From positions 49,825 through 113,824 of the forward strand of contig CAZPRK010000002.1 of the NCBI GenBank assembly GCA_964589485.1: a stretch of 64,000 nt of DNA, read 5' to 3'. Below, one piece after another: positions 27,662 through 49,390 of this stretch. Position 1 is the stretch's first letter. The number at the start of each line of letters is the position of its first letter. The DNA comes from an uncultured Methanosarcinales archaeon. GTDB taxonomy: Archaea; Nanobdellota; Nanobdellia; Woesearchaeales; CAYSVS01. The position numbers and the translations under genes are program-made. The notes beneath the pieces are model-generated. The model was given only the letters and a program-made list of their open reading frames with translations. It was not told the DNA's origin and searched no databases.

Positions 27662-27810
27662 GGGGGCATAGTATAACCTGGCTAGAATAGCTGGCTCCAA
27701 ACATGGAGCGATGAGGCTTCGGCCGATGATTAAGCCTTGGGATACACCAGTTGATTCCAATAACTATCGTATTGGAAGCTGAAATCTGGGTTCAAATCCC
27801 AGTGCCCCCA
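27662..27810 (+). tRNA. tRNA-Trp (anticodon CCA) interrupted by two introns: a canonical 37/38 intron (27701-27745, 45 nt) and a second intron in the variable loop (about 27754-27783, 30 nt); the mature tRNA is 74 nt with no encoded CCA
   Basis: Acceptor stem GGGGGCA / UGCCCCC with discriminator A73. T arm CUGGG-UUCAAAU-CCCAG. Anticodon stem GCUGG (27690-94) pairs with CCAGU (27747-51), with loop CUCCAAA (C32 U33 CCA A37 A38). Conserved G18 G19, A14, A21 and an A15:U48 pair are present. Intron 1 forms an hBHBh' motif: bulges AAA and ACA, central helix UCC/GGA, and intron helix CA..GG / CC..UG. Intron 2 forms a relaxed HBh' motif: the 8-bp hairpin UUCCAAUA/UAUUGGAA flanked by helix CAGU/GCUG, with bulges UGA and AAA. 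Confidence 0.6.
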
Positions 27811-27816: not shown

Positions 27817-27862
27817 GTCACTTATTAGTTACATTTAAATATTACTTTGTTTTCTCTGGTAA

Positions 27863-30800
27863 ATGAATAGTGCTGGAACATTAGATAGAACTTTAACTGA
27901 CGTTATAAGTGAAAATTATAATTCTTTAATTCAAACTACTAAAGATAAAGTAAATAAGGTTGTTAAAACTTATCAAGGTGTTAAAAATAATTTATCTAAA
28001 ACACTTTCTGATGGATTTAAAAAAATAGGTTATCAAACATTAGGTGAACAAGCTCAAACTGCTTTAGGATATAATTCTATCGATGATGTTGAAGATATTA
28101 AAGTAGAACAAAAAAGTTTTTTAGAAAATGTTTGTCAAAGTACAATAAGTCCTATTACTGACTTTTTTCAAATTGGTAGAGTTGCAGGAAATAAAAAAGT
28201 TTTAGTAAATAATGCATTAAGTGCAATTAAAAAATACTCTAAAGAAAGTAATAGAAAAGTAACTGGAAGTGAAGCTGCAGATATAATTGAACAATATACG
28301 GGATCAAGTGAAGTTGCAAAAGAAGCAACTAAACAAATTGTTTCAAGTGAAGATTTTTCTTATGTTGATGATAGTGAAATAAAATCTAAAAATGTTACAA
28401 CTTATGGACCTTTATCTATATACAAAGCAGAAGGTGAAACTAAATTAGCTAAAGTCTTAGACTGGACTAAAAAGAATTTGCTTACAATGGGAAGTGAAAC
28501 TAAAACTTTAACTTTGCCTGCAATATATTCTTCAGGTGGTTTAGGAAGTTTAGGACATTATTTTATAGGAAGAGCTATTGTAGGAGCAGAAGTTGGAACT
28601 GTAGTTGGTGCAGCAAATGGATTAAAAGATAAAGTAAAAGAAAAATGTGGAACAAATAAAGTAACTGAATTTCTTGATCAAAACTTAACTCAATTAGAAA
28701 TGGCTTTATATTTTGCACACATTGGTGACTGGGAATTAGCAGGATTGTCAGCAAGTGGAGCTGTTGCTAACACTGTTGAGAAAAAAACTAAAAATGATTT
28801 ATTAAGTAAACTTGCAGGGTGTATTGCGAAAGGTTCAGAAGTTGTTTCCTATGGGGTTTTTGGATCAAGAGCATTAGATAGTGTATTAGCTGGAAAAGAA
28901 ATACCTTCTGTTGTTGGTAATTTATTTAAATTTTATACTCACGTTTCTAGTGGAGACAACGTTCCAGCTGTCTCCCTAGAAACTGATATTTTAACTAAAA
29001 CTAATATTGATAAAAATGAATTAACGGATGCTAAAGTACAACAAATAAAAGAATTATATGGAATGGCTGAGCCTGTAAAAAGGGAAAGTGTAGTTCCTCA
29101 AGAATTATCTGAAGCAGAAGTAATGCATATTAAACAATTGTATGGTTTGGGTGAAAATGTTAATGCTAAAGTTTCTAATCATAATGAACCTAATCTTCAA
29201 AAAGGTTCTAATCAAGATGGTAATGGAAATAATGACGATCCAGGTTTTATTGAAGTAGATGGTGATAGAGATCATGAATTGAAATTAAAGGAATATGTAT
29301 TAGATTTTAATCAAGCCAAAACTAAAGAAGAATTTTCACAAATCAATATTTCCGCTTTTGATTATTTTGAAAAAAATAGAAAAGTAATGAATGATTCTAT
29401 AGAAAGTAGCTTTATTGATTTTGGAAAAAAAGTTTTTTTAGCTTCTAAACTTGACGAATCTTCTTCTAAATTTAGTCAAGCTTTATTGTTACCAGAAAAT
29501 GTAAATTATTCTCATCTGATTCAAAGTTATGAATCTAATCAAAAATATTTAGAAGATTTATTAAATTCAAGAGATGATTTAGATGAAGATATTAAACAAA
29601 TAACTGATACTTATAATATTTTTAAAGTATTAGAAAATGTTTCTTCTGAGAAGCACCAGTCTTTTATTGAATCTGCTCAATTAATTAATTCATCAAGAAA
29701 TGTTTTAGATAATAAGGGATTTGATAATTTTATGTTTGAATTGTTTCAAGCAGGTGTTTTGGGTAAAGATTGGTTTATGAAAGATTCATTGACAATTAAA
29801 AAATTAAAATATTTTGATGAAATGTTTACTTATTTTGGTGAAGAATTAACTAAATTACCCGAATTAAAAGAGTATTCTGTTTTTTCTGAAACTTATGAAA
29901 AATTACAACAAGTACATAAAATTGTAACTGGAACTAATGTGGCTAATTTACCAGTTGATCAATTGAGTACACCTGAGTATGATTTATTAAATGTGAAACT
30001 TGATCTTGAAAGAATATCTAATAGGTCATTAACTTATTTAAGAAGAGGTATAGATAGTAGTCATGATTTTGTTAGGATTGTATTGTTGCCAAATATTGCT
30101 AATTATGAATTAAATAATTCTGATACTCTTCAAGAAAATATTGAACTTAATATTGCAAAGCTTTATGCTACTGAAGAAATAAAAAGTAAAGTAAAAAGTG
30201 AGTTAGGAGATTTAGATATGCCTATTTCTGAAATTAAAACTAATAGAAATATTTCATTAGATAGGGTATACAAAGAAACTCAACCAATTACTTTGGAAGA
30301 ATTAATAAATAAACGTGCAAATAAACATTTAGGTAATTTAAGTCAAGGGAATTTTTCTTTTTTCTCTAGAGTATATTATAGTTTAAATAAACTTAATCTT
30401 GGTTTAGACAATGCTGAATTAGATAAACTTCATTATGAGTTAAGTGATTTTTTTAATACTGTAATGGATGCTCCTGAATTGTCTAAAGTTAAACCAAAAA
30501 TATCTGGAACTAATGGGGTAATAGATACTGTTGAAGAATATGCTGAATCTATTAAAGCAATAGAGGACGTAACTCATGAAGTTCATAAGCATAGTAAAAG
30601 TTTTACAAATTTAGCAAAAGATACAATTTTTTCAACTAATCTAGGACAATTAAGTTTATTTGGAAATTTATTAGGAATACCAAACACGTTTGAATTATTA
30701 AAAGGGTTAAGGACAGTAAGAAATTTTGAAAGAAATGATTATGATCCTATTAAGACTGTGAAATCTGTATTAATAGATGATCCGATAAGAAGTGCTCAAG

Positions 30801-31090
30801 CGATTTTGAAAATTCCAAGTAAATTAAAACACATGGTTTTTGATAATGAGAGTTATAGTTTAAATGGAGTTCCTTTAACTACATTAGATTCTTCAGAAGG
30901 GGCAAAAATAGTAGGTATAAATTTATTAGATGTTGTTAGTCAAATGTATGATAAAAAAAGTTTAACTATGGCGAATAGTTTAATTTCAACATATGTTTCT
31001 GGAACTATGCATCGTGATTATCTTGATTGGTATGTTGGGCATATAGAAAATTCAGATAATTTGGAAGATATTTTGAAAAGATTGTTGTAG
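27863..31090 (+). CDS. Large hypothetical protein (1075 aa), soluble, no recognisable domain
   Basis: Long uninterrupted ORF beginning 52 nt after the tRNA. It has Gly/Ala-rich segments (SSGGLGSLGHYFIGRAIVGAEVGTVVGAANG) and no TM helices. Confidence 0.6.
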   Translation: MNSAGTLDRTLTDVISENYNSLIQTTKDKVNKVVKTYQGVKNNLSKTLSDGFKKIGYQTLGEQAQTALGYNSIDDVEDIKVEQKSFLENVCQSTISPITDFFQIGRVAGNKKVLVNNALSAIKKYSKESNRKVTGSEAADIIEQYTGSSEVAKEATKQIVSSEDFSYVDDSEIKSKNVTTYGPLSIYKAEGETKLAKVLDWTKKNLLTMGSETKTLTLPAIYSSGGLGSLGHYFIGRAIVGAEVGTVVGAANGLKDKVKEKCGTNKVTEFLDQNLTQLEMALYFAHIGDWELAGLSASGAVANTVEKKTKNDLLSKLAGCIAKGSEVVSYGVFGSRALDSVLAGKEIPSVVGNLFKFYTHVSSGDNVPAVSLETDILTKTNIDKNELTDAKVQQIKELYGMAEPVKRESVVPQELSEAEVMHIKQLYGLGENVNAKVSNHNEPNLQKGSNQDGNGNNDDPGFIEVDGDRDHELKLKEYVLDFNQAKTKEEFSQINISAFDYFEKNRKVMNDSIESSFIDFGKKVFLASKLDESSSKFSQALLLPENVNYSHLIQSYESNQKYLEDLLNSRDDLDEDIKQITDTYNIFKVLENVSSEKHQSFIESAQLINSSRNVLDNKGFDNFMFELFQAGVLGKDWFMKDSLTIKKLKYFDEMFTYFGEELTKLPELKEYSVFSETYEKLQQVHKIVTGTNVANLPVDQLSTPEYDLLNVKLDLERISNRSLTYLRRGIDSSHDFVRIVLLPNIANYELNNSDTLQENIELNIAKLYATEEIKSKVKSELGDLDMPISEIKTNRNISLDRVYKETQPITLEELINKRANKHLGNLSQGNFSFFSRVYYSLNKLNLGLDNAELDKLHYELSDFFNTVMDAPELSKVKPKISGTNGVIDTVEEYAESIKAIEDVTHEVHKHSKSFTNLAKDTIFSTNLGQLSLFGNLLGIPNTFELLKGLRTVRNFERNDYDPIKTVKSVLIDDPIRSAQAILKIPSKLKHMVFDNESYSLNGVPLTTLDSSEGAKIVGINLLDVVSQMYDKKSLTMANSLISTYVSGTMHRDYLDWYVGHIENSDNLEDILKRLL

Positions 31091-31173
31091 TTACTAAACA
31101 GTAATGTAAAAAGTTAGTTTTATAAGTAACTTATCTTTACTTGCAAAAATGATTCAATTCGGAGGGTTTCACA

Positions 31174-32154
31174 ATGGAAGAAATTAAAGATCAATTATAC
31201 ACTGATGCAAAAAATCAAGTTATACACTATTTAAAACAAATTCATACTACTAGTACTAATGATAAAAAAGGTAATAGAGCAGTTAAAAAATTAATGACAA
31301 ATGTTTATGAACCTATTATAAAAGCTATGATTCAAATTCCTGAGGTTTCTTCTGTTTTAGTTAATGGTGAAAATATAACAAGTACTCTTCAATTTACTCA
31401 AGCTGATGCTTTGGTTCAATTAGATGATGCTTTAAGATATTCTGGGGATGATGATTCAATATTTGCTTGTAAAGTTGAAACTGAAAAATACGCGAAAGTT
31501 TTAGATGTAGATCCTACGATAGATTCTATTATTGTTGGTGGATTTAATACAGGCAATTTAGATAATATGATTAGAAATTTTCAAGATATTGCACAAAGAA
31601 ATGAAAGTATCGATAATAATGATTTACCAACATATGAACCTTCTTTTGAACAAGAATCTCAAACTAAGGATCTTGTTGAAATTTCAAATGAGCCAAAACA
31701 TTACGATGTTCAAGAAATTGTTCAAGGTATGCAAGGTCAATTTGAAGTTGTTTTACATGATATGAAGGAACAACATACCATTGAATTAAATGATTATAAA
31801 AGAGCTAATAGAAAAAATTTAGTTGCTTTAGGAGTTTTAGGGATTATTGGTTTAAGTTATTTAGGCTATTCAAATGCAAAATTATCTGATGAAGTTAAAG
31901 ATTCAAATAACGAAACAAAGCAAAAAGTTACTGCTATGAAAGAAGAATCAGTTCAGACTCTAAGCTCAGTTTCTCAAACTGCAACAGATTTGGCAACTTC
32001 TTCTCAAGCAAGAATTGATAAAACTACAAGTACTGCACAACTAATTATGAGTGATTCGTATAAGTTACGTAAAAAGCTTAGAGAAACTATGCAGAAAAAT
32101 GATAATGATATGAATGATTTATTTGATTTAATGGGAACTCAAGCTGCTAGGTGA
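31174..32154 (+). CDS. Hypothetical protein (326 aa) with a single central TM helix and coiled-coil-like flanks
   Basis: RBS CGGAGGG 8 nt upstream. Hydrophobic segment LVALGVLGIIGLSYLGY near aa 213-230. No known domain. Confidence 0.55.
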   Translation: MEEIKDQLYTDAKNQVIHYLKQIHTTSTNDKKGNRAVKKLMTNVYEPIIKAMIQIPEVSSVLVNGENITSTLQFTQADALVQLDDALRYSGDDDSIFACKVETEKYAKVLDVDPTIDSIIVGGFNTGNLDNMIRNFQDIAQRNESIDNNDLPTYEPSFEQESQTKDLVEISNEPKHYDVQEIVQGMQGQFEVVLHDMKEQHTIELNDYKRANRKNLVALGVLGIIGLSYLGYSNAKLSDEVKDSNNETKQKVTAMKEESVQTLSSVSQTATDLATSSQARIDKTTSTAQLIMSDSYKLRKKLRETMQKNDNDMNDLFDLMGTQAAR

Positions 32155-32161
32155 TTTTATT

Positions 32162-34567
32162 GTGCAACCTCAAGTTAAAGTTCAATATGATTTGAAACCT
32201 ATTGGATCTACATCAAATAACAATTCAGTTACTGTTGCATTTGCAGGGAAAGGATCATCAGGTAAAACTTTTTTAACTTATTTGTTATTTGAAAGGTTAT
32301 CTGAAATAAAACCACAAGATATGTTATATTTATCCTTTGATGGTAAATGTGGTTATAGTGAATATAAACAAGTTATTTCTAAAAAAACTAGTTTTGATGC
32401 AATAGATGATTGTGTTAGTATTAATGGAAATGTTAATGGATTAAAATTACAAGGATATCTTGAAAAGGTTAGACTTGAAAATTCAACTTTACATACTTTG
32501 CTTGGAGGTAGTGGAAAAGATGAAGTCTATGAATGGGATGAAAATAAGTTACATAAATTAATTAATTTGTTTCAATATCTGAAACCAAATTATAGTGTTA
32601 GGATTTTTGATTTCGCAGGTGGATGGAACTATGCATCTAAAAGTATACCTTGTGCTATGGCTGATTCGGTCATATTAATGGCTTCAGAAAGTCAAGGCTT
32701 AACTGAAATTAAGCAAAGATTAGAATTCACAGTTGAGGAAGATTTTAGAAACAGTTTAAGACTTACTTTAAATCAAATGATTGAAGAAGAAACTATTGTT
32801 TCTAATGTAATAAAATATGCAAAAGTTTATGCAAAATTAATGTCAAATAAAAATTTAAAATTTGGTGATGATGATTTTATGGAAGAAGCTGAAAAAGAAT
32901 ATAAAGCTATTTTTAAAGAAGATTCTAGAAATTTAAGAAATTTTTTAGTACATTATTTTAATAATAGGGAAGTTGAATCTGTGACTTACATTAAGTTAAC
33001 AAATTTATCTCCTGAAGTAGTACCTGATTTAAGGAAAGCAGATATAATTGGGAATTATAGACGTATTGTTAAGCCTGAATATAATTTACATTACGATGAA
33101 ATTTTAAAATTTAGTCAATTAACTAAACAAAGTCCTGCTCAAATTATTTCACAATTGTCTGCATTAGCAAGTATTGGTGTTACGCCTGAACAAATTAACA
33201 ATGGACTGTTTAAGAAAACTTTAGATGATGTTTTAGATTCTGATTTGCTTCTAACTAAAAATAAAGTTATAGAAGTATTGATGAAAGAAATTGATGTAGG
33301 TATTGTTCAAGAAAACTTAACTTTAGAGGAGTTAGCAAGATCTTTTGCAAGGATTGGTATTTCTGAAGATTATTTATTAAATGAATTAAAACAAAAATTA
33401 AAACAAGATAAAGTGCGTGAGGTTAGTTCCGGGGAAATAATGGAAACTGAAGCAGAATTAAGCACTTTAGAAGATAATATAGATTCTTTAGTTAAACAGA
33501 GCTTAAATCAAGTTCAATTTGAAAGATTAGGAGAAACATTTGAAGATAGGTTTTTTTATTATCGTCAATTAAAATCTAAACCAAAATTTAAAGAGTTAAT
33601 TAAAGAGTATGTTGAATTAGATGAAGAGTTAAGAGATATGAAAAATCAAGGTTCTGGTTTTTTAAATTCTTTAAATTTAGTAACAAAGGATTCCGGTTTG
33701 CAGTATATAAACAGCTTGTTTAAACACACGAGAAATGCGTATAATGAAATACTTAGAAGTAAAACTAAAGTTAGCACAGGAAAAACAAATTTTTTTTTTA
33801 TTGCAAATAAAGTTATGCCTTCTAAAGAATTAAGTGATATTGGAACTTTATTGAATGATGAATATTCTGAAAAAAAAGATTCTCATCCGCAATTTTTTAG
33901 TGGAGATGAAAGTCGAGTTGAAAAAGGCGTGTTTGCATTAATTGCAGAAGTGTATTCTTCATTTAAATCATCCAAAAATGGAGTTCTTCAAGATTGGGTT
34001 AATGAAAGAAGTAAAATACGTCAGAAAAATAAAGGGCTTTTTGGTATTGATTCTAAAGTGGCACATAAAAGTACTGTTGAATTTTTTAAAAATGAATTAG
34101 AAAGATATTCTAGTTTTAGAGGATTAGACTCAAAGTTCGATGAACGTTTGGAAACATATGTATCAGCAATACAATCTGGTGAAATTAGTGAGGTTAGGAA
34201 AGACTTTTTTGAAGATTTCATAAGCATTTTAGAGTTTAATTATCTTCATGATTTATGGGAGAAAAAAATTCAAAAAATTTTGGAAAAACCTATCATAAAA
34301 CAATCCGGTTTAGATGTTGAATATTTAGGATGCATACCTTTTGATTATGATATGGAAGATGTGTTTACGCGAACTGATATATTGAAAACTAATGAATTAG
34401 TTCGAGATAAAATTGATTTTATTATTGATAAAACAATAGGTGCTGTTTCAAGAAAAAAAGCAACTATTGGAGAAATAGTAGTTGAAAAAGAAAGTGCATT
34501 TAGTTTAGGAAAATTGGGAGCTGGGTTTAGAAATTTTGGAAAAAGTTTAGGCTTTTTTTCGAAATAG
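32162..34567 (+). CDS. Hypothetical 801-aa protein with N-terminal MinD/ParA-type deviant Walker A ATPase domain and about 600-aa uncharacterised C-terminal region
   Basis: VAFAGKGSSGKTFLTYLL matches the KGGxxGKT deviant Walker A with the signature lysine. Walker B-like VRIFDFAGG is followed by ADSVILMASES. GTG start at 32162, with no in-frame ATG nearby. Confidence 0.55.
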   Translation: MQPQVKVQYDLKPIGSTSNNNSVTVAFAGKGSSGKTFLTYLLFERLSEIKPQDMLYLSFDGKCGYSEYKQVISKKTSFDAIDDCVSINGNVNGLKLQGYLEKVRLENSTLHTLLGGSGKDEVYEWDENKLHKLINLFQYLKPNYSVRIFDFAGGWNYASKSIPCAMADSVILMASESQGLTEIKQRLEFTVEEDFRNSLRLTLNQMIEEETIVSNVIKYAKVYAKLMSNKNLKFGDDDFMEEAEKEYKAIFKEDSRNLRNFLVHYFNNREVESVTYIKLTNLSPEVVPDLRKADIIGNYRRIVKPEYNLHYDEILKFSQLTKQSPAQIISQLSALASIGVTPEQINNGLFKKTLDDVLDSDLLLTKNKVIEVLMKEIDVGIVQENLTLEELARSFARIGISEDYLLNELKQKLKQDKVREVSSGEIMETEAELSTLEDNIDSLVKQSLNQVQFERLGETFEDRFFYYRQLKSKPKFKELIKEYVELDEELRDMKNQGSGFLNSLNLVTKDSGLQYINSLFKHTRNAYNEILRSKTKVSTGKTNFFFIANKVMPSKELSDIGTLLNDEYSEKKDSHPQFFSGDESRVEKGVFALIAEVYSSFKSSKNGVLQDWVNERSKIRQKNKGLFGIDSKVAHKSTVEFFKNELERYSSFRGLDSKFDERLETYVSAIQSGEISEVRKDFFEDFISILEFNYLHDLWEKKIQKILEKPIIKQSGLDVEYLGCIPFDYDMEDVFTRTDILKTNELVRDKIDFIIDKTIGAVSRKKATIGEIVVEKESAFSLGKLGAGFRNFGKSLGFFSK

Positions 34568-34678
34568 TTGTTACTCTTGAGGGATGGTGTTATGCGAAAG
34601 CTTTATATACGACTTGGTCTTAACACAACTATTTTAAAGTAGTTATGGGGTGTTTTAACTTTACGGAGGGTTAATCAA

Positions 34679-35491
34679 ATGAAATATTCAAATATTGCAA
34701 AAAATGTTATACTTGCTGCGGCTTTATATGCTCCTGTTAATGGTGCTGAATTACAAAAAGTTGGTCGTACTGCTATTTTAGGTTCTACAAATCATGGTGT
34801 TTATCAAGTTGAAAAAATGCCAGAAGCTATTCAAAGCAAATTAAAAGGTAAGACTATATTAAATAAATATACTAAAGATAAGGATGCTTTTATTCGAACA
34901 CAAGATAAAAGTGGTAACCAAGAATATTTTAAAGTTATTGATACTGTTTCTACTCCAAGTTCAACTGGAACTACAGTAGAAAGTAAAGTTGTTGGAGCTA
35001 ATGGTTCTAATAAAATTATGAACGAAAAGATAGTTTCAGCTTATGCTAGATCTGCTCAAACTTATTCTTCAATGGAAGAAGGCCCAAAAAAAGATTTATT
35101 GAAAACTAAATTAACTGGAGATTATAAAACTATTAGTGAAATCGTTGATGGTGGAGATCAGAAAAAGTTAGATGAAGCACATGCTACTTTAGATTCTAGA
35201 GTTCTTAACTCAAGTACTGAAGAAGAAAAACAAAATTTTTGGAAAAAACATTTTGGCTTCGATACTTGGCAAAAAGGAGCTAAGACTATTGTAGCTGGTG
35301 TTGTAGGTTATAAATTGTTAGACTCTTTATTTGGCGGAAGCGGTGGAAACAGCGGAAGTTCAAATGTAAAAACTCCTACTTTACCTTTACCTGGTGAACA
35401 ACCTGGTAACAAAGGTCAAGGTTTTGGTGGATTTACTGGTGGTTCAAAAGATCATAATGATTCAAATCAAGGACCAGCTCACGATTTGTAA
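34679..35491 (+). CDS. Secreted/surface protein with N-terminal signal-like helix and Gly-rich C-terminus
   Basis: N-terminal MKYSNIAKNVILAAALYAPVNGAE. C-terminal GGSGGNSGSS...GQGFGGFTGGSKDHND. RBS CGGAGGG upstream. Confidence 0.55.
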   Translation: MKYSNIAKNVILAAALYAPVNGAELQKVGRTAILGSTNHGVYQVEKMPEAIQSKLKGKTILNKYTKDKDAFIRTQDKSGNQEYFKVIDTVSTPSSTGTTVESKVVGANGSNKIMNEKIVSAYARSAQTYSSMEEGPKKDLLKTKLTGDYKTISEIVDGGDQKKLDEAHATLDSRVLNSSTEEEKQNFWKKHFGFDTWQKGAKTIVAGVVGYKLLDSLFGGSGGNSGSSNVKTPTLPLPGEQPGNKGQGFGGFTGGSKDHNDSNQGPAHDL

Positions 35492-35508
35492 GTAAGAGGT
35501 TTACAAAA

Positions 35509-38500
35509 ATGAAAAATCTAAAATCAATTACACTATTATTTTTTATTTTATTTTCATTAAGTGTATCAGCAAATCATCAACCTGAGTTTATTACTGGGTC
35601 AATTGACATTGATACAAATGAATTAATAAATGGAAATGTAGTTTTATTAAATTCTGAAACTGGAGAAATTGAGACTAGAGGTGGTTCAAGAAATCGTTTT
35701 TATGATGTTGATCTTGATACTTTGTATTATGTAGTTTATGGTGCGGATGATTATAACACGGATACTGATATTGTTTATTTTGATTCTAGAATTCCTTTTT
35801 GTACTGATGAGTCTTGTACTTTTCAAAGAGAACAAATTATAACTAAATGTGATATGAACTATGCACAAAATGCATTTGAATGTAGTGTAAGCGATGGAAC
35901 TGGAACTTCTTATTTTGTATATGATATTGAAGAAAATGATTATAAAAGAGTAAATTATTTGAAACATTTTGGAAAAAGTGACGAATTTTTAATTAATGTT
36001 AGGGCTGAGAATGAAGATGGTATGGTTGACCATATCGATAGTGCAATTATAAATGGAATTAAAACTTCAGGAAGAAATGCATATTTTATTGTATCATCTG
36101 ATACTAAGTATGATTTAACAATTGATCAATCTGGACATGAAAAATTTAGTCAAGAACTTTATTTTGATTCTGATATAACAGCTTGTGAAGGGAATTGTGA
36201 TCACGTAAGTAATGGTTATGAAACTACTTGTTGGAATGTTGCATCTGATAGAAAAAAATGTGAAGTTTCAAATGGATTAGTTTATTATCTTGATGGAAAT
36301 ATTGAAATAAATTTTGAATCAATTTTACAAAAAAAACAAACTCAAACTATTAATTTTAAAACTGGATCCTTAAGTGCAACAACTGACGAAATGTTACAAT
36401 CGGATATTGCGATTCTAGGAGAAAGAGAATCTAGTGTTAATACTTTTGACTTACCATTAAATGAAGTTGTTACAATAACTCATTTTGCAAACGGGTATCA
36501 AAATTATGTAGATTTTATTTATGTAGACTCTGGTATTTTATCTTGTAATGGGTCAACATGTGATGTTGAAAGTAATGGATTTACAACTACTGGTGTATTT
36601 AATAATAATGAAAATGCTTGGGAATTTACTGTAACTGATGTTAATAGTATTTCTAGATCATATGTTTATGATTTAGATGATAATGTTGTTAAAAGAGTTG
36701 TAAGAATGATTCCTGCTTTACGTTTTGAATATGATTTTATTACTGGAGTTCAAGATGTTGATACTGGTGAAATGATAGAGTTTCTTTCAGTATTAACGGA
36801 TAGTAAGAATAACATAGTTAGAGCTGAAGATGATGAAACTTCTGTTGCATATGATATAGAACTAGATACTTTATATTATATAACTTATTCTGCAGAAAAT
36901 TACGGATCAGAAACTGATGTTTTATACTTTGATTCAGGAGTTCCTACTTGTGTAAATGGAGATTGTGAATTTGAAAGTAACGGTGTATCAACTTCTTGTA
37001 GTAAAAATGATGCAGAAAATGCTTTAGAATGTAGCATAACTGATGGAACTGGTACTGATTATTATGTATATGATTTTGATGATAGTAATTTTAAAAGAAT
37101 AAACTATTTGAAAAAGAATAGTGCTGCTGATCAATTTAATTTATTGATTAATGGAAAAAATGAAGCAAATGGTGTTTTTTTTGATGATTTTACTGTTACT
37201 TTAGGGGGTATAACTAAATCAACTAATTTCGAACATGGTAATGAGGTTCATTTTATTATTTCACCTGATACTTTATATTCTGCAAAAATAAGTAAGAATG
37301 ATGGTTTTGGTGTATTTGAAGATTTAGCTATAAATTATTACCTTGACTCTAGGTTAACTACTTGTGGTAATGCTTGTGAATTGGAAGAAAATGAAGCAGG
37401 GTATAGTACTTCTTGTTCTGGAAGTACTTGTAGTGTATTTAAAGATGGTAGCGAAATAAGTAACTTTGTTTTCGATACTGGTATTAATGCTGCTTGGGAT
37501 ACTGTTTCGCTAAAACCAATTAAAGCAGATTATTACAGATTTAGAACAGGGGCATTAAATGAGTTTAATGACGAAATTGATGACATTACTGTTGAAATTA
37601 ATGGAGTTAGTAAGCAAAATGATAAACCTGAGTTAACAGTTCCTTCAAATGAAGCTTTTGGAATAAAATATACTCACAAAGATTATGAAGATTTGAATGA
37701 TTTTTTATATGTAGATGAAAAAATTATTACTTGTGGTGGGAATGATTGTACTTTAACTAGTGGGGAATTTACAACTACTGGAACATATAACAATAATGAA
37801 AGAGCTTGGGAATTTACAGTAAGTGATGATAATGGAATATCAAGATCTTTTGTTTATGATAATCAAGGAATAATTAAAAGAATTGTTAATATGGATGTAA
37901 AAGACGGAGCAGATATAATTAAGCCTACTTTTAGTAATCCTATGCCTGCGCAAGATTCTTTAGTTACTGAAGAACCTTTTTGGATAACTATAGATGTTAC
38001 TGATAATGTTGGTATAAATGAAGGTTCTGCAGATTTATGGTTAGATGGAAGATATTTTAATCCTATTTTTGAAAATGGACAAATTAAATATTTAGTTGAT
38101 AGTAATATTTTATTAAAAGGCGAGCATAGAGTTGAAGTTCGTATAGAAGATACTAATGATAATGATGCAAGTTTTGATTGGGAATTTAATTTAGATTTAA
38201 GACCGAATGTAGATTTTACAATAAGTCCTAATCCTGCTAATATAAATGAGTTTATCACATTCGATGCATCTTTATCAAATGATGATGGAACAATTGTTTC
38301 ATATGTTTGGGATTTTGGAAATGGGGTACAAGCTTCTGGAATAGAACCTGAGTATCTTTATTCAAATTCAGGAAATTATGATGTAACTTTAACTGTTACT
38401 GATGACGCAGGAACAAGTTCACAGTTAACGAAAACTGTTGTTGTATTAAGTACAAATCAAGCACCTGTTGCGGAAGCACAGGCTGATAAAACTATAGTTT

Positions 38501-39843
38501 TAGTGAATGAGAATATTCAGTTTGATGATGATTCCTTTGACCCTGATGGAAATATTGTAAGTTATTTCTGGGATTTTGGAGATGGAAGTACTTCAACTTT
38601 AGCTGGACCTTTATACAGTTATAGTCAACCTGGACAGTATACTGCAATTTTAACAGTAACTGATAATGATGGTGCAACTAATAATGATAGTATTACAATT
38701 ACTGTAAATGCTCAAGCAAATCAACCACCTATTGCTGTAGCAAAGGCGGATAAAACTACTGTAAGAGTTAATGAAAATATTCAATTTGATGCAACTGATT
38801 CAAGTGATCCTGAAGATGACTTTTTAGTTTATGCTTGGTTTTTTGGAGATAATAAATTAAGTTTTAGTAAGACGCCAATTCATTCATTTGATGATGAAGG
38901 AATTTATAACGTAACTTTAACTGTTACAGATACAAGTTTAAATGTAGCAAGACAAAATATTATAATTACTGTAGTTGAAGATGATTTTCCTATTGCAATT
39001 GCAAAAGCTGATAAGACTACTGTTAAAGTAGGAGAAGTTGTTAATTTTGATGCATCTGAATCTACAGATGATGGAACAATTGAATCTTATCTATGGAATT
39101 TTGGAGATAATACTTTTTCAGATAAAGAACAAGTAGGACATACTTTTACAAGTCCGGGTGGATATATAGTATCTCTTACTGTTACTGATGAAAGTGGTCA
39201 ATCTAGTACAAGTAAAATAGGCATAACTGTAACTGAATCTGAAGTAAGTCCAACTGCTAATGCAAAAGGACCTTATAGTGGATTTGTAAATGAAATAATT
39301 AACTTCGATGGAAGTTCTTCATTAGGTGATATTGTAAAATATCAGTGGACTTTTGGAGATGGTTCTGTGGCTGAAGGATCTCAAGTATCTCATACTTATG
39401 GGAACGTGGGAAGATTTGTAGTTACTTTAACAGTTACTGATCAAAATGGGTTAACGCATACTTCTCAAACAGAAGCAAATGTAGATGCTCGAATTATAGC
39501 GCAACCTCAACCTAGTAAGGAAAAGAGAGAATTAAAAATCTCAAGAATTTCATCTTTAGGTGGAGGAATTGCATATGCTGGAGATGTTACATCTTTCAAA
39601 GTTAAGCTAGAAAATACTGGTGACTTGGATTTAGAAAATGTTAGAATTAAAGCATTTATTCCTGAGTTATTTGTATATGACAGTACTGGAACTTTCGATT
39701 TAGATGATGGAGATAGTGAAACTAAACAGTTACTATTGAATGTTCCTGGTGATGCACAATCAGATAGTTACTTGGTTAAGTTTAGTATTAGCCAAGGAGG
39801 AGAAAATATTAGGACTAAATATAGGTATATTTTCATAGAATGA
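35509..39843 (+). CDS. Giant secreted adhesin-like protein (1444 aa) with duplicated N-terminal modules, about six PKD domains and a CARDB-like C-terminal domain
   Basis: Signal peptide MKNLKSITLLFFILFSLSVSA. A tandem about 400-aa super-repeat (DTLYYVVYGADDYNTDTDIVYFDS... and DTLYYITYSAENYGSETDVLYFDS...). Repeated PKD units (FDASLSNDDGTIVSYVWDFGNGV...YDVTLTVTDDAGTSS, five or more copies). Confidence 0.8.
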   Translation: MKNLKSITLLFFILFSLSVSANHQPEFITGSIDIDTNELINGNVVLLNSETGEIETRGGSRNRFYDVDLDTLYYVVYGADDYNTDTDIVYFDSRIPFCTDESCTFQREQIITKCDMNYAQNAFECSVSDGTGTSYFVYDIEENDYKRVNYLKHFGKSDEFLINVRAENEDGMVDHIDSAIINGIKTSGRNAYFIVSSDTKYDLTIDQSGHEKFSQELYFDSDITACEGNCDHVSNGYETTCWNVASDRKKCEVSNGLVYYLDGNIEINFESILQKKQTQTINFKTGSLSATTDEMLQSDIAILGERESSVNTFDLPLNEVVTITHFANGYQNYVDFIYVDSGILSCNGSTCDVESNGFTTTGVFNNNENAWEFTVTDVNSISRSYVYDLDDNVVKRVVRMIPALRFEYDFITGVQDVDTGEMIEFLSVLTDSKNNIVRAEDDETSVAYDIELDTLYYITYSAENYGSETDVLYFDSGVPTCVNGDCEFESNGVSTSCSKNDAENALECSITDGTGTDYYVYDFDDSNFKRINYLKKNSAADQFNLLINGKNEANGVFFDDFTVTLGGITKSTNFEHGNEVHFIISPDTLYSAKISKNDGFGVFEDLAINYYLDSRLTTCGNACELEENEAGYSTSCSGSTCSVFKDGSEISNFVFDTGINAAWDTVSLKPIKADYYRFRTGALNEFNDEIDDITVEINGVSKQNDKPELTVPSNEAFGIKYTHKDYEDLNDFLYVDEKIITCGGNDCTLTSGEFTTTGTYNNNERAWEFTVSDDNGISRSFVYDNQGIIKRIVNMDVKDGADIIKPTFSNPMPAQDSLVTEEPFWITIDVTDNVGINEGSADLWLDGRYFNPIFENGQIKYLVDSNILLKGEHRVEVRIEDTNDNDASFDWEFNLDLRPNVDFTISPNPANINEFITFDASLSNDDGTIVSYVWDFGNGVQASGIEPEYLYSNSGNYDVTLTVTDDAGTSSQLTKTVVVLSTNQAPVAEAQADKTIVLVNENIQFDDDSFDPDGNIVSYFWDFGDGSTSTLAGPLYSYSQPGQYTAILTVTDNDGATNNDSITITVNAQANQPPIAVAKADKTTVRVNENIQFDATDSSDPEDDFLVYAWFFGDNKLSFSKTPIHSFDDEGIYNVTLTVTDTSLNVARQNIIITVVEDDFPIAIAKADKTTVKVGEVVNFDASESTDDGTIESYLWNFGDNTFSDKEQVGHTFTSPGGYIVSLTVTDESGQSSTSKIGITVTESEVSPTANAKGPYSGFVNEIINFDGSSSLGDIVKYQWTFGDGSVAEGSQVSHTYGNVGRFVVTLTVTDQNGLTHTSQTEANVDARIIAQPQPSKEKRELKISRISSLGGGIAYAGDVTSFKVKLENTGDLDLENVRIKAFIPELFVYDSTGTFDLDDGDSETKQLLLNVPGDAQSDSYLVKFSISQGGENIRTKYRYIFIE

Positions 39844-39966
39844 TTTACTTATTTTTAGTTAAATTGTGTAACTACTCTTGTATGTTGAAATGCAGAAACA
39901 TTTAAATACTACAGGGTATTACGCGACATTAAACGATCAAAAAAACCAAATTTGGAGGGAAAACAA

Positions 39967-41223
39967 ATGAAAGGAGTGAAAATTTTCACAATGTTCGTCT
40001 TATTAACTTTGGCGACTGTTGGCATTGCATCAGCAATCCCTGTTACAGGAGTAGAAGTTAAATTAAATGGCCATGTGTACAATACAGGTGAAACTGTAAA
40101 AGTAGAAAGAGGCGAAGAATTAGAAATATCTTTTAAGATGACTGCTGATAGTAATGTTAGTAATGTCGATCTAAGAGCTTTTATTGCTGGGTATGAATAC
40201 AGTAATAGAGAAAGTACATCAGATTCTGAGTTTTTCTTAAATTTAGAAGAAGGTGTAACTTACCAAGAAAAGTTAACAATTGATATACCAGAGAAAGCAG
40301 ATAAAGACCAATATTTGTTAAGAGTTTACTTAGCAGATAGAGGATCAATCGCAACAGAATTTACTTACAATTTAAAAGTTGAATCAAAGGAAAAAGATGT
40401 AACTATTAAAGATGTAATTCTAAGTCCTGAGTCAAAAGTTAAACAAGGAAGAGCTTTGTTTGTTATGGCAAGGATTAAGAACACAGGTATGCAAGATGAA
40501 GAAGGTATTAGTGTAAGAGCAGCAATTCCAGAATTAGGAATTTCAAATAGAGTTTATTTAGATGAACTTGAAGCAGAAGACACTGAAACTACAGAAGAAA
40601 TTTTGTTACAAATACCTAAGTGTGCTGAACCAAAAGATTACACTGTTGTTACAACTGTAGAATTTGACGAAGGTTTCAAAACTTCAACTGAAGAATCCAC
40701 TATTAGGGTTCAAGATGCAGGAGTATGTGAAGCTGGAAGTTCAACAAGCGAATCAAAAACAATTATCAACGTAGGACCACAAATCCAAGATGTTGTTAAA
40801 GGTCAGAGTGGATCAGTTTATTCACTAACTTTGAACAATTTAGGAGCAACTTCCAAAACTTTTACAGTTGGTGTAGAAGCAGGAAATTGGGCTAATGTTC
40901 AAATGTCCCCAAGCAATGTAGTTGTTTTAGGTCCAAATGAAGCTAAAGCTGTTTACGTGCAAGTTAGCGCAAATGATAACGCAGTTGCTGGTGAGCAAAT
41001 GTTTGCATTAAGCGTTAAGTCAGGCGATCAAGTTTTAAAGGAAATACCTTTGAAATCTAATGTTGTTGAACCTGCTACTGCTAGTGGATCAAAGCTTAAG
41101 AAAGGCTTAGAAGTTGGATTAGTTGTTTTAGTAGTATTGTTAGTTGTTTTAGGATTAATCATTGGCTTTAACAGATTAAAATCTGATGAAGACGATTCTG
41201 AATCTGGACAAACTTACTATTAA
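39967..41223 (+). CDS. Cell-surface protein with signal peptide, CARDB-like beta-rich domains and a C-terminal TM anchor
   Basis: Start at ATG 39967 with GGAGGG 8 nt upstream. The track's 39952 start is a TTG lying inside the RBS. Signal peptide MKGVKIFTMFVLLTLATVGIASA. C-terminal TM GLEVGLVVLVVLLVVLGLIIGF followed by an acidic tail. Confidence 0.7.
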   Translation: MKGVKIFTMFVLLTLATVGIASAIPVTGVEVKLNGHVYNTGETVKVERGEELEISFKMTADSNVSNVDLRAFIAGYEYSNRESTSDSEFFLNLEEGVTYQEKLTIDIPEKADKDQYLLRVYLADRGSIATEFTYNLKVESKEKDVTIKDVILSPESKVKQGRALFVMARIKNTGMQDEEGISVRAAIPELGISNRVYLDELEAEDTETTEEILLQIPKCAEPKDYTVVTTVEFDEGFKTSTEESTIRVQDAGVCEAGSSTSESKTIINVGPQIQDVVKGQSGSVYSLTLNNLGATSKTFTVGVEAGNWANVQMSPSNVVVLGPNEAKAVYVQVSANDNAVAGEQMFALSVKSGDQVLKEIPLKSNVVEPATASGSKLKKGLEVGLVVLVVLLVVLGLIIGFNRLKSDEDDSESGQTYY

Positions 41224-41261
41224 TTTTTTTTTTTTTAATATATTTATTTTGAGGGGGTTAA

Positions 41262-43502
41262 ATGCGTAATATCTTAATATTCTTAATTATTGTATCTATT
41301 TTAAGTGTTAGTGTTAGTGCAGATTTTAATTTTTATTCAACTAATTCTGAAATGATGACGTGTGAATATAATCCAAGTAACATTGATGTGTTAGGAGTAC
41401 AAAATATAGGAACATCTGCTTCAAATTATCAAATAAAATTATCTGGAGATAATAAATGGTCTAAAGTTTATCCTAATAAATTTTTCCTTCCAAGTGGATC
41501 TACTCAGTTAATTAATTTATTTAGTGAAGCACCAACAGGAGCATATGATTTTGATATTATAGTTTACCCTGATTTCGGTTTACCTAAAGTTCTAAAAAAG
41601 AAAATTATTGTTGATAAGTGTATTAATGTTCAATTAATTGCGAAAAAAGCAGGTGTAGGTGCATGTGCAGGGAAATATATAGAAATTCCTTTAGAAATTA
41701 CTAATAGAGGTGTATTTGAGGAAGAATATTTTTTATCTGTTGATGCTTTTGGTGAAGAAAATTTTAGTAAGAATAATTTTAAATTAAAACCAAGTGAAAG
41801 TTTATCTGTTGTATATTCTAATAATTTACCTAAAGATTTTTTTGGAAATAAAACAATTACAATTAAAGTTAAAGCATTGAAATCTGGATTAATTTCTAAA
41901 TTAGAAATTCCTATTAAAATAAACAACTGTTATAACTTTGATATTAAAGCAAATAATAATGTTCAAGTGTGTAATAATGATAAACAAAACATTACATTTA
42001 CTGTTAATAATTTAGCTAGTTTAAATACAAAAGTTGATTTAGAATTAAATTCACCTTATTGGGTTAAACTTAATAGTAAGAATGTGAATTTAGAAGGAAA
42101 TTCTAATAAGTTTGTAAATGTTGAAATTAATTCTGATAAAGCTCAAGAAACAAATATTACTTTATCCGGTAAAGCATTTGGAAAAGAAGTAAATAAAGTA
42201 GTGAAAATTAAGTCAATTGAATGTTATGATTTAGATATTAAGTCTGAAATTAGAAAAGATGTTTGTGCGTGTAATAAGGAAAAATATGATTTAATTATTC
42301 AGAATAAAGGTAATAAAGATGATTTGGTTTTAGATGTATTTTCAGAAAAAATAAATTTTCATAAACAAAAAAGTATCTTATTAAATACAAAAAATAAAGT
42401 AACTTATGATTTTGATTTAGATATTCCTTGTTCAAGTATTGGAACTGGAGAAATACAATCTATTGCTACATCTAATGGAGAAATTAGAAAAAAAAATTCA
42501 ACAATTTTAAACATTTATTCTCCTTATAAATGTAAACAAGCTGAATTTAAAGTAAATAAATTTAAGTTTACTAACGATGAAAGTAAAAGGTTTACTTTAG
42601 ATGTCATTAATACTGGAATAAAAAGAGCTTCTTATAAAATAAATGCTTATCCTGTAGATTTAGTTACATTTAACATAAGAAATGTTGTTTTAGAACCTGG
42701 TAAAAGTTTTAGTGTTCCTTTTTCTTTAACTAAAGATGATACTGGTATTTATTCAGTTTTGTTTAGTGCAGTTTCTAAGGATCAAAATTATGAACAAGAA
42801 TTTTTATTTGTAGTTGGTGATGTTCATAAATCAAAAGTTGCAATGTATACTTATGGCTTCATAGGATTAATTATTTTACTTTTAATATTGAATTTTGTAA
42901 GAAAAAAAATTCAAAAGTCTAAAAGAAATTTTAAAAAAATATTTACTATTTCATTTTTAATAGTTTTATTAGGTTATTTGTTATATTTATTTTATCAAAA
43001 ATTCGGATTAAAATTCTTTAATTATTTAAGAAATGTGGATTATGGAGAATTATTTTCAAAATTATCAAAAAATTCAGAACTATTATTACATGATTTAGGG
43101 AATTCTTTAAGTATAGGCGTAAATTATGTTATTTTATTTTTGAAGTTATATGGTTTGTATTTAATAGTGGGTTTAATTATATTGTTTACCCTAATATTCA
43201 TTTTTGAGAAGAGAAATAAATTTAAAAGCTTATTGGTAAGTAAAAAACGTGATGTGAAAGTGGAAGAAGTAACAAAGAAAAAATCTAACTTTTTTGATTT
43301 TGTTTTGAATTTCTTTTTTGAAATAGAAAAAGTAGAAGTAAAGACTGAAGAACCTGTGAAAGTAAAACCTAAAAAAATTAAAACAGAAGTTCCTAAGGAA
43401 GTTAAATCTAAAAAAGTTACTAAGAAAGTAGCAAAAAAGAAAACTGATATACCTGAACCTTGGAGTAAAGTAAAAAAATACAAAAAGGTTAATAAAGATT
43501 AA
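41262..43502 (+). CDS. Cell-surface protein with signal peptide, CARDB-like repeats, C-terminal TM segments and a Lys-rich cytoplasmic tail
   Basis: RBS GAGGGGG upstream. Two TM helices near aa 520-640, then KKVKPKKIKTEVPKEVKSKKVTKKVAKKK. Confidence 0.65.
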   Translation: MRNILIFLIIVSILSVSVSADFNFYSTNSEMMTCEYNPSNIDVLGVQNIGTSASNYQIKLSGDNKWSKVYPNKFFLPSGSTQLINLFSEAPTGAYDFDIIVYPDFGLPKVLKKKIIVDKCINVQLIAKKAGVGACAGKYIEIPLEITNRGVFEEEYFLSVDAFGEENFSKNNFKLKPSESLSVVYSNNLPKDFFGNKTITIKVKALKSGLISKLEIPIKINNCYNFDIKANNNVQVCNNDKQNITFTVNNLASLNTKVDLELNSPYWVKLNSKNVNLEGNSNKFVNVEINSDKAQETNITLSGKAFGKEVNKVVKIKSIECYDLDIKSEIRKDVCACNKEKYDLIIQNKGNKDDLVLDVFSEKINFHKQKSILLNTKNKVTYDFDLDIPCSSIGTGEIQSIATSNGEIRKKNSTILNIYSPYKCKQAEFKVNKFKFTNDESKRFTLDVINTGIKRASYKINAYPVDLVTFNIRNVVLEPGKSFSVPFSLTKDDTGIYSVLFSAVSKDQNYEQEFLFVVGDVHKSKVAMYTYGFIGLIILLLILNFVRKKIQKSKRNFKKIFTISFLIVLLGYLLYLFYQKFGLKFFNYLRNVDYGELFSKLSKNSELLLHDLGNSLSIGVNYVILFLKLYGLYLIVGLIILFTLIFIFEKRNKFKSLLVSKKRDVKVEEVTKKKSNFFDFVLNFFFEIEKVEVKTEEPVKVKPKKIKTEVPKEVKSKKVTKKVAKKKTDIPEPWSKVKKYKKVNKD

Positions 43503-43520
43503 ACTTAGAGCTGCTATTTA

Positions 43521-44588: not shown

Positions 44589-44606
44589 TAAAAGGAATGT
44601 GATTTT

Positions 44607-44987
44607 ATGTCGGAAACAAAGTTATGGGCAATTTTTGTTGTACTTTTTTGTACTTTATTCACATCAACTGCTCAAATTTTACTAAAAACTGGAATAAATA
44701 ACTTTAATTTAAGTTCTTTATTGACAAATTATACATTAATAGGTGGGTTGGTTATTTATGCATTAGGTGCAGTATTATTGATAATTAGTTTTAAAGGTGG
44801 AGAAGTAACTGTTATTTATCCTGTTTTTGCCACTAGTTATATTTGGGTTTTATTATTATCTGTATTTTTTCTTGATGAAGCATTTACATTTTATAAAATT
44901 GCATCTATATTGTTAATAATTACTGGAATTTTTTTTGTTACCAAAGGTGGTAGAAAAATGTATAGTGAGGCTGAGCCAATTGACTGA
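44607..44987 (+). CDS. 4-TM small multidrug resistance/EamA-type membrane protein (ArnE/ArnF-like flippase subunit)
   Basis: 126 aa, four hydrophobic helices. Confidence 0.55.
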   Translation: MSETKLWAIFVVLFCTLFTSTAQILLKTGINNFNLSSLLTNYTLIGGLVIYALGAVLLIISFKGGEVTVIYPVFATSYIWVLLLSVFFLDEAFTFYKIASILLIITGIFFVTKGGRKMYSEAEPID

Positions 44988-45321: not shown

Positions 45322-45392
45322 ACTTCGACTATAAATTTAGCAAAAGATTTATAAATGGACTTCTTTTTTGGTTTTACTAAGGGGAAATTATA

Positions 45393-49358: not shown

Positions 49359-49390
49359 AGTTTATAAATTGCTTTTTCTTTTTAATTCTC

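Follow-up and report, generated by a model that had tools for sequence, protein, structure and literature searches.

The window analysed here, the whole 64,000-nucleotide stretch of contig CAZPRK010000002.1 (assembly GCA_964589485.1), carries at 27863–43502 seven co-oriented genes, g1 to g7, which are two juxtaposed units: unit A (g1–g4), an orphan module, and unit B (g5–g7), a surface locus. The third gene, g3, most likely encodes a SIMIBI/MinD-class ATPase whose core, to judge from its motifs, carries two large helical inserts, and its architecture and partners are without a described counterpart, although the superfamily to which it probably belongs is known. We tentatively favour the reading that g3 is a positioning ATPase that binds the membrane, has novel partners and possibly organises the adjacent envelope proteins. 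An earlier note on this DNA had described the region as a single system of eight genes; the interval holds seven co-oriented open reading frames (ORFs), and g5, g6 and g7 are conserved separately, being found without g1–g3 in two relatives, L011 and L012. The genes, the tRNA before them and all sequence elements placed in or beside them lie on the plus strand.

A divergent MinD/ParA-type ATPase with a putatively split core

g3 (32162–34567; 801 residues, GTG start) reads as a divergent MinD/ParA-class (SIMIBI) P-loop ATPase. The hallmark of ParA/MinD proteins is a Walker A of deviant type, KGGxxK[S/T] (PMC11407121). In g3 the ORF and its alignment place the motif GKGSSGKT at residues 29–36 (32246–32269), where both lysines and the threonine are kept and the second glycine is replaced by serine; its homologue h3 from a second lineage, described below, has GKGGSGKS, an exact fit to the hallmark. 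Both proteins share an hhhFD strand after Walker A, a DxxG Walker B and then a hydrophobic strand. In the alignment of the two, the Walker B/switch II segment of the hhhhDxxG type is RIFDFAGG in g3 (residues 147–154, 32600–32623) and VFLDTKGG in h3. The MinD/ParA-type Walker A and the FDFAGG element that the earlier note had read in the 801-residue protein are thus both present, the latter as IFDFAGG at 148–154.

Profile comparisons point in the same direction at low scores. Unspliced g3 has no match in Pfam, NCBIfam, PHROGs or PADLOC, and none in a sequence search of the PDB. A two-sequence profile of the g3/h3 N-terminal region gave FlhG (4RZ2, E 0.07) as its best PDB match, followed by Get3 (0.11) and then NifH, and the alignment with FlhG 4RZ2/4RZ3 is collinear across Walker A and switch II (segment ydyliFDmgaG). 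Among Pfam families, h3 matches CbiA and ParA at E 0.02–0.045, CbiA being the best ATPase family, and g3 from which residues 201–534 and 563–706 have been removed matches CbiA over profile positions 3–113 of 125 (E 0.043), with no such match before splicing. An hhalign comparison with Escherichia coli MinD aligned residues 23–61 over 38 columns (probability 27%, E 7e-4) and is treated as a lead only.

Two late-core motifs are common to g3 and h3, FFIANK/YFLCGNK (g3 residues 544–550) and LGCIPFD/LGVIPHN (721–728), which we take to resemble the motifs of the final two strands in the MinD fold, hhhhN[KR] and LGxIPxD. Because these motifs fall at 544–550 and 721–728, two helical inserts, of about 330 and about 145 residues, seem to split the g3 core. 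Neither g3 (801 residues) nor h3 (797 residues) is the compact single domain of about 250–300 residues found in ParA/MinD (A/D) ATPases. At the other end of g3, the C-terminal tail KLGAGFRNFGKSLGFFSK (34511–34564) is a candidate amphipathic membrane-targeting helix: the hydrophobic moment of the last 18 residues lies in the top 3–5% of the protein's 11-residue windows, and in h3 the moment peaks 10–25 residues from the end. The high hydrophobic moment of the g3 tail KLGAGFRNFGKSLGFF would be compatible with membrane binding. A/D ATPases bind the membrane through a C-terminal amphipathic helix, and their genes mostly stand next to that of the partner or cargo (PMC11407121).

With MinD and FlhG, g3 has in common the deviant Walker A of the KGGxGK[ST] type, the DxxG Walker B, the order of core motifs, a putatively amphipathic C-terminus, a location beside putative partner genes and FlhG 4RZ2 as its best PDB profile match. 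It differs in being three times longer (801 vs about 270–300 residues) with a core apparently split by two long helical inserts, in profile scores below the family thresholds, in the serine at the second glycine of KGG, and in that its locus has no MinC/MinE and no flagellar or archaellar partners.

Two other assignments were considered and set aside. A STAND/NACHT NTPase was suggested by an NPHP3_N match to h3 (E 2e-4), which covers the P-loop only; a KGG-type Walker A with a Walker B of the DxxG form, in place of a DD/DE pair, fits SIMIBI. A DNA-binding role was suggested by conserved QLSxxASIG and RIG motifs in a g3 insert that look, by eye, like helix-turn-helix or helix-hairpin-helix elements; it was dropped after a Pfam sub-region scan, which covered these motifs, the core motif of g1 and the N-terminal domains of g2 and its positional counterpart h2, gave nothing below E 0.05.

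The partner proteins g1, g2 and g4

Searches of Pfam, NCBIfam, PHROGs and PADLOC, and of PDB sequences, gave no match for g1, g2 or g4, apart from the chance nanobody matches that g1 returned from the PDB, both as a sequence and as a profile. The description of the three large proteins g1, g2 and g3 as domain-less in the earlier note therefore holds across four profile libraries, PDB sequences and billion-scale protein searches, and none of the three was assigned to a known viral or S-layer assembly family, in agreement with that note's impression that the cluster resembles no described assembly system.

g1 (27863–31090) encodes an acidic protein of 1075 residues (net charge −31) that lacks a signal peptide and any known domain. 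It aligns with h1 (1221 residues) at 29% identity across the C-terminal 369 residues (BLASTP, E 6e-37) and at 25–29% overall. This comparison delimits a conserved C-terminal helical domain at residues 633–1075 (29759–31087), in which the motifs HYELSxFFN, NGVIDT and IEDxTHxVHxHxKS are kept. Residues ~215–350 (28505–28912) form Gly/Ala-rich, glycine-zipper-like segments below transmembrane (TM) strength, with Kyte-Doolittle peaks of 0.9–1.4 (e.g. FIGRAIVGAEVGTVVGA) and comparable segments at residues 112–292 of h1, and in both proteins a low-complexity acidic linker joins the N-terminal third to the C-terminal domain. The lack of a signal peptide and a neutral frequency of N-X-S/T sequons fit a cytoplasmic or peripheral-membrane location for g1 and h1.

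g2 (31174–32154; 326 residues) encodes a bitopic protein with the single TM segment that the earlier note had reported, at residues 215–233, between an N-terminal domain of about 214 residues and a polar helical C-terminus of about 90 residues outside. h2 (421 residues, TM at ~238–254) has the same architecture. The N-terminal domain of g2 and h2 (about 215–240 residues) is probably cytoplasmic, as the basic residues on the N-terminal side of the TM segment would predict under the positive-inside rule. The first 40 residues of the two proteins share K-x-Q-x-x-H-x-L-K, and their local alignment compared with shuffled sequences reaches only p = 0.034. The stop codon of g2 lies 7 nt before g3, to which g2 is probably translationally coupled.

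This arrangement, with a membrane protein bearing an extracellular helical part 7 nt upstream of a MinD-related gene, inside a glycan-biosynthesis island, could also recall a split polysaccharide co-polymerase (PCP) or bacterial tyrosine kinase (BY-kinase) pair, comparable with CapA/CapB, that would regulate glycan export or chain length, and BY-kinases do descend from MinD-like ATPases. We regard it as very improbable: no Wzz/PCP or BY-kinase family match appeared at any threshold, g2 and h2 are not Wzz-type two-TM partners (g2 has one TM segment), and g3 and h3 have a Walker A of the KGG and not of the BY-kinase type and show neither the Walker A' motif DxDxR nor a C-terminal Tyr cluster.

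g4 (34679–35491; 270 residues) encodes a Gly/Lys-rich protein that has a signal-like segment at the N-terminus and a Gly-rich hydrophobic segment (IVAGVVGYKLLDSLFGG) near the C-terminus and ends in a tail rich in Pro and Gly. The layout of h4 (274 residues) is the same: a signal or anchor at the N-terminus and a hydrophobic, Gly-rich segment near the C-terminus.

The moderately hydrophobic Gly-rich segments of g1/h1 and g4/h4 bear on another improbable reading, in which g3 would be a Get3-like or secretion-chaperone ATPase whose inserts shield the glycine-zipper segments of g1 (and g4) for delivery to the cell's own or a host's membrane, unit A being an effector or pore delivery system. Get3 is itself a SIMIBI ATPase, and its core contains an inserted helical subdomain that binds clients; g3 shares with Get3/ArsA a KGG-type P-loop, a putatively inserted helical subdomain and weak PDB profile matches, Get3/ASNA1 being among the top ones; and fast evolution would suit a host-facing protein. 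The match is nevertheless confined to the Walker A region, that is, to a generic P-loop, and the inserts of g3 are far larger and charged (Lys/Glu/Leu-rich), not Met-rich or hydrophobic. Moreover, g1 has no recognisable export signal, the cluster has no translocon component, and at the g3 locus there is no Get1/2- or WRB-like receptor and no evident tail-anchored client.

One near-identical strain variant, L018, has an indel in g1 near residue 713, a frameshift-like patch at residues 901–905 and one substitution in g2. The g1 differences are probably assembly noise, and the ratio of nonsynonymous to synonymous substitution rates (dN/dS) between the window and L018 is uninformative.

Unit A is shared with a second lineage and is otherwise rare

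An exhaustive phmmer (HMMER) scan of 1.84 billion representative proteins, the sole solid evidence on rarity, found one relative of g3 besides g3 itself: P0010, the 797-residue protein h3 (E 4.9e-9). Word-indexed searches of 5.8 billion clustered proteins with g3 and g1 as queries returned the queries only within a limit of 8000 candidates, which is weak evidence; a g1/h1 profile in the same search missed the known h1, revealing a blind spot for low-complexity proteins from AT-rich genomes. A metagenome scan with the g1/h1 profile gave no match.

The second lineage is represented by contigs with 30% GC, ENA k141_245306 and NCBI CAYZMD010000033.1 (L006/L007), which carry in order h1, h2, h3, h4, h5 (a PKD protein of 1239 residues), h6 (423 residues) and h7 (>875 residues). 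Identity between the two lineages differs widely among the genes: 24% over the P-loop domain (pairwise BLASTP, 1e-5) and 24–27% overall for g3/h3, 39% for g5/h5 (E 1e-82), 33% for g7/h7 (E 1e-72) and 58% over the full length for g6/h6 (E 1e-154). Upstream on the h contig lie the same Trp/Tyr-permease gene, present as its 3' end (46% identity), and an orthologous intron-containing tRNA-Trp. Conservation of the gene neighbourhood in related genomes, a check set beforehand, is thus borne out by an order h1–h7 kept in a strongly diverged lineage. Because homologues, gene order, flanks and expression signals are kept in the h lineage, g1–g4 are real, selected genes from a common ancestor. Between the tRNA-Trp and h1, the h lineage also carries h0 (L006:713–2659; 648 residues), whose product has a cytoplasmic part at the N-terminus, a single TM segment and, at the C-terminus, a NAGPA (phosphodiester glycosidase) domain; the window has no counterpart of it.

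Further relatives were found by profile scans with g6/h6. In L011, where g6 identity is 44%, an intron-containing tRNA-Trp (4954–5097) is followed by two unrelated ORFs (335 and 555 residues) and then by PKD, g6-like and g7-like genes, and downstream genes including GGR-like, AglB and a family 2 glycosyltransferase (GT2) are syntenic at 43–60% identity. In L012, a metagenome-assembled genome labelled as Nanoarchaeota, an intronless tRNA-Trp (3605–3680) is followed by a GDP-mannose dehydratase gene, two ORFs (504 and 453 residues), a PKD gene and two g6 paralogues. We did not find g1–g3 in the L011 or L012 loci. PKD homologues precede g6 homologues in L007, L011, L012, L013, L014 and L017, short metagenome contigs included, and the pair g5–g6 makes up an old surface locus, conserved and tied to tRNA-Trp across the four lineages. 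In the window and in L011 it is accompanied by g7 and a downstream AglB; the h contigs end before any AglB. Unit A (g1–g4) fills a variable slot in this locus, in two lineages only.

The surface locus g5–g7

g5 (35509–39843; 1444 residues) encodes a secreted PKD protein with an N-terminal hydrophobic stretch at residues 3–21 as its signal, no membrane anchor and five PKD stretches (Pfam PKD_4 313 bits and PKD 206 bits, above the gathering score). The internal super-repeat of about 400 residues that the earlier note had ascribed to this PKD giant is genuine: it spans about 390 residues, contains Cys, and aligns residues 26–400 with 409–795 at 36.6% identity (E 7e-76). The C-terminal domain of g5 is related to a domain of g6, and an anchorless protein with a g6-like C-terminal domain may dock on g6.

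g6 (39967–41223; 418 residues) encodes a protein with a signal peptide, Ig-like domains and a C-terminal TM anchor; its start is likelier the ATG at 39967, with GGAGGG upstream, than the listed TTG at 39952. The g6 domains match NPCBM_assoc/NEW3 (E 4.6e-10) better than CARDB (E 0.006). Of the earlier description of g6 and g7 as CARDB-like membrane-anchored proteins, the membrane anchoring stands, with signal peptides and C-terminal TM anchors in both, and the CARDB label is marginal for g6. Against the NCBIfam model NF033506 ('PACE-CTERM putative S-layer protein'), g6 scores 80.9 bits (E 8e-23), under the cut-off of 110, and h6 and the other relatives score 81–104 bits (E 1e-23 to 1e-30), all of them, g6 included, covering only model positions ~250–620 of 627. 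By sequence, the relationship of g6 to the C-terminal 60% of NF033506 is significant, but membership is not established.

The candidate S-layer protein of Nanobdella has Ig-like folds, no homology to classical S-layer proteins and multiple glycosylation sites. Like the putative S-layer protein of Nanobdella aerobiophila and NF033506, g6 is membrane-anchored and has Ig-like domains; it is the best conserved gene of its cluster and has its own strong Shine-Dalgarno (SD) motif and a likely terminator. The differences are a score of 81 vs the 110-bit cut-off, a length of 418 residues vs a 627-position model, and a g6 family that is nearly free of sequons. From its conservation (58% identity with h6 over the full length), its own SD motif and a GC content at third codon positions (GC3) that is the highest in the cluster (0.184), g6 is probably the main envelope (S-layer-type) protein.

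The g6 protein ends in a conserved acidic cytoplasmic tail, …NRLKSDEDDSESGQTYY, that terminates in GQTYY. Its TM anchor and short acidic tail (41131–41223, …GFNRLKSDEDDSESGQTYY) are near-invariant in comparison with h6, the terminal GQTYY included, which may point to a conserved site of binding or modification inside the cell. The last gene, g7 (41262–43502; 746 residues), encodes a polytopic, CARDB-like protein that comprises a signal peptide, an ectodomain of about 500 residues rich in beta structure, three TM segments and some 100 residues of Lys-rich tail, the tail that the earlier note had assigned to one of the anchored proteins. The TM topology would place this tail in the cytoplasm. 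L011 also has a g7 homologue.

The PKD proteins are strongly depleted in N-X-S/T sequons: g5 has 3 vs 19.8 expected (0 of 2000 shuffles as low), h5 (L007:5386–9105) has 8 vs 15.8, the L011 homologue (8351–10273) has 3 vs 10.3 and the L012 homologue (7935–9689) has 0 vs 4.4. Each member of the g6 family has 0–1 sequons, and g1 and h1 are neutral. In archaeal envelope proteins whose genes lie 2 kb from AglB, such depletion would not be expected.

A possible role of unit A at the cell envelope

In the reading that we tentatively favour, unit B would be the principal envelope locus of an uncultivated marine archaeon with low GC that is probably of DPANN/Nanoarchaeota type, an origin made more plausible by that low GC and by the relationships of the g6 family. 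By analogy with the rules drawn up for the ATPase family (PMC11407121), g3 would bind ATP and form a sandwich dimer through the deviant Walker A lysine, attach to the inner face of the membrane by its C-terminal amphipathic helix, and offer its helical inserts as a platform that recruits or positions g2, g1 and the exported g4. The module may then organise local membrane or envelope assembly together with the surface proteins, with the acidic tail of g6 and the Lys-rich tail of g7 as possible contacts. Envelope assembly is suggested as the target because of the location in a glycosylation island and the conserved cytoplasmic tails of the neighbouring proteins. The surface-structure or adhesion role that the earlier note proposed for the ATPase module is still drawn from adjacency.

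A known pattern is among the closest to such an arrangement. The cargos of ParA-like ATPases include secretion and conjugation machines and PomXY (PMC11407121). As with TadZ/CpaE, BcsQ, VirC1 and PomZ (with PomX/PomY), an A/D-type ATPase is here encoded with large non-enzymatic membrane or scaffold proteins, and localisation to the envelope is proposed. Unit A differs from these systems in that no Tad, Bcs, Vir or PomX/Y partners are detectable, g1, g2 and g4 are orphans, and the organism is archaeal, probably DPANN.

Several observations weigh against the favoured reading. None of the family matches of g3 and h3 reaches a curated cut-off (CbiA 14–15.5 bits vs 25.4, Pfam ParA 13.6 vs 27.1), the PDB profile E-values for g3 are 0.07 or worse, and the split-core view depends on short motifs picked by eye. 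Single-sequence AlphaFold2 (AF2) models are unusable and give no fold support, with a predicted local distance difference test score (pLDDT) of 33 for g3 and of 35 for the C-terminal domain of g1, which is modelled as all-helical. Sequence similarity is not significant between g2 and h2 (p = 0.06) or between g4 and h4 (p = 0.15), and their equivalence is positional only. Finally, synteny is shared on both sides, and the adjacency of units A and B may reflect descent and not functional coupling; unit B, which occurs without g1–g3 in relatives, needs no unit A.

The last two points are also those on which a separate reading draws, that unit A is a self-contained cytoplasmic or membrane module unrelated to the surface proteins, for example a PomXYZ-like scaffold positioning system for division or segregation, with its adjacency inherited. 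Upstream synteny (permease and tRNA-Trp) makes adjacency expected from descent alone, unit B stands without g1–g3 in L011 and L012, g1 and g3 have no signal peptides and show the neutral N-X-S/T counts of cytoplasmic proteins, and ParA-like ATPases with large scaffolds are an established combination (PomXY, PMC11407121). We consider it somewhat unlikely nonetheless: g2 and g4 are membrane or exported proteins, and the module thereby reaches the envelope; strong use of SD motifs is common to both units and rare elsewhere in the window; and the genes lie inside an envelope-biogenesis island.

A more far-reaching version of the envelope-organising reading, which we hold to be unlikely, would make g1–g4 an undescribed apparatus in which the split-core ATPase, the glycine-zipper protein g1 and the bitopic g2 form a platform by which the S-layer-type protein and the adhesin with PKD domains are patterned or anchored, for instance at the host-contact site of an ectosymbiotic nano-sized archaeon. 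Envelope building and the organisation of host contact are little understood in nano-sized, probably symbiotic archaea, and most of their surface-related genes are orphans. This locus offers a defined, conserved surface trio (a PKD protein, an S-layer-type protein and a polytopic CARDB-like protein) and with it a rare accessory module whose sole recognisable part is a positioning-type ATPase of an architecture unseen in studied family members. If the assignment of g3 is confirmed, the ParA/MinD core would prove to tolerate inserts of several hundred residues, and the family would gain an archaeal cargo. The practical weight is limited, as the module comes from two uncultivated lineages and orphan clusters are common in such genomes.

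tRNA-Trp as a syntenic landmark

The window is AT-rich (about 27% GC), and its contig is also present in several marine metagenomes, such as JGI 3300007504 (contigs of 142 kb and 175 kb). An intron-containing tRNA-Trp (CCA) at 27662–27810 (plus strand; Rfam RF00005, 35.1 bits), which ARAGORN missed, lies upstream of the surface locus; the anticodon loop of the tRNA, CUCCAAA, specifies Trp. As the earlier note had it, the run of genes begins 52 nt past the end of this tRNA, at the g1 ATG at 27863.

The same note took the position next to a tRNA as typical of laterally acquired modules. The adjacency is ancestral synteny, tRNA-Trp preceding the surface locus in four lineages, and the two checks that would have marked an insertion gave no sign of one: the 22-nt 3' end of the tRNA occurs once only in the 64-kb window with 3 mismatches allowed, leaving no attachment (att) repeat, and the composition of the cluster (GC 0.23–0.34, GC3 0.10–0.18) equals that of its flanks (GC 0.22–0.31, GC3 0.09–0.16). 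No shared k-mer is longer than a 14-mer that comes from the AT-rich spacer between the tRNA and g1 (27825–27838) and recurs inside g7. The tRNA-Trp is a syntenic landmark and not an integration scar; an old insertion is possible, as the slot behind it varies, with a presence/absence polymorphism in which L011 and L012 carry other genes there and no g1–g3.

This variation is what would speak for unit A as the remnant of an island, mobile or variable, that sits in a hypervariable slot after tRNA-Trp, with a partition-type ParA and element-specific large proteins. What lies between tRNA-Trp and the PKD gene is different in each lineage (g1–g4 in the window; h0 and h1–h4; the 335- and 555-residue ORFs of L011; GDP-mannose dehydratase with the 504- and 453-residue ORFs of L012), the distribution of the module is extremely narrow and its sequences diverge fast. 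Such a remnant is quite unlikely, however, on the evidence of gene content: no integrase or recombinase domain occurs in 27863–44987, no replication gene was found with Pfam, NCBIfam and PHROGs, and a viral or plasmid origin was rejected for want of any match in IMG/VR, GenBank phages, PLSDB, PHROGs or PADLOC. To this are added the tRNA 3' end without a repeat in 64 kb, a GC and GC3 indistinguishable from the flanks, and the presence of the module at the same site in two lineages whose proteins are 25–58% identical, which implies long vertical inheritance.

The tRNA-Trp intron is long (about 45–75 nt) and has conserved GATGA...GATGA and CTGA motifs in the window, in L006 (520–638) and in L011 (4954–5097). 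These motifs are box C/D-like and resemble the guide RNA of euryarchaeal pre-tRNA-Trp introns, in which a box C/D guide RNA is known. The window copy of the tRNA is about 30 nt longer than that of L006, and cmscan reads the extra sequence as a second insertion.

Expression signals

SD-like motifs stand upstream of six of the seven cluster genes vs 4 of the 38 other genes of the window (Fisher p = 1.6e-4), many of which look leaderless, with a TATA-like box 20–40 nt before the ATG. The claim that every cluster gene is preceded by a GGAGG ribosome-binding site therefore holds in the weaker form of an SD-like motif before six genes and fails for g1, which lacks GGAGG. The transcript of g1 is probably leaderless: it has no SD motif, and a TATA-like element, TTTAAATA, lies at 27834–27841 (plus strand), 22–29 nt before its ATG (−29 to −22). 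As with g1, h1 in L006 has TTTTATAAA at about −30 and no SD motif. GGAGG-like SD motifs precede h2, h4, h5, h6 and h7, and h3 and g3 both have a weaker AGGT.

Two classes of translation signal are seen across the genome. Most genes, including many internal or overlapping ones, have a TATA-like element at about −25 to −35 and no SD motif; the strong GGAGG class comprises g2–g7 and few others, for example the gene at 49032, and the split is retained in the h lineage.

Directly after the g6 stop codon lies a run of about 13 T (T13; 41224–41236, plus strand), which is likely to be an archaeal terminator or attenuator. T-rich tracts are also found 3' of h6 and of the g6 homologue of L011.

The glycosylation island around the cluster

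The cluster is surrounded by an envelope-glycan island (1–27600 and 43521–50841) that includes a DegT aminotransferase, PMT_2, a Wzx-like flippase and several GT1 and GT2 glycosyltransferases. It also contains two NeuB-type synthases, one fused to a CMP-transferase and one to a methyltransferase, a CDP-alcohol phosphatidyltransferase and two proteins with a thymidylate-kinase-like domain. The AglB/STT3 protein (45393–48386) has a C-terminal PPIC-type peptidyl-prolyl isomerase domain at residues 894–986, and its L011 orthologue is 46% identical along almost the whole protein. A 914-residue ORF (50897–53641) at the edge of the island combines a pyruvate-kinase barrel, a PUA-like domain, ATP sulfurylase and APS kinase, a sulfate-activation fusion whose domain content suggests that the glycans may be sulfated.

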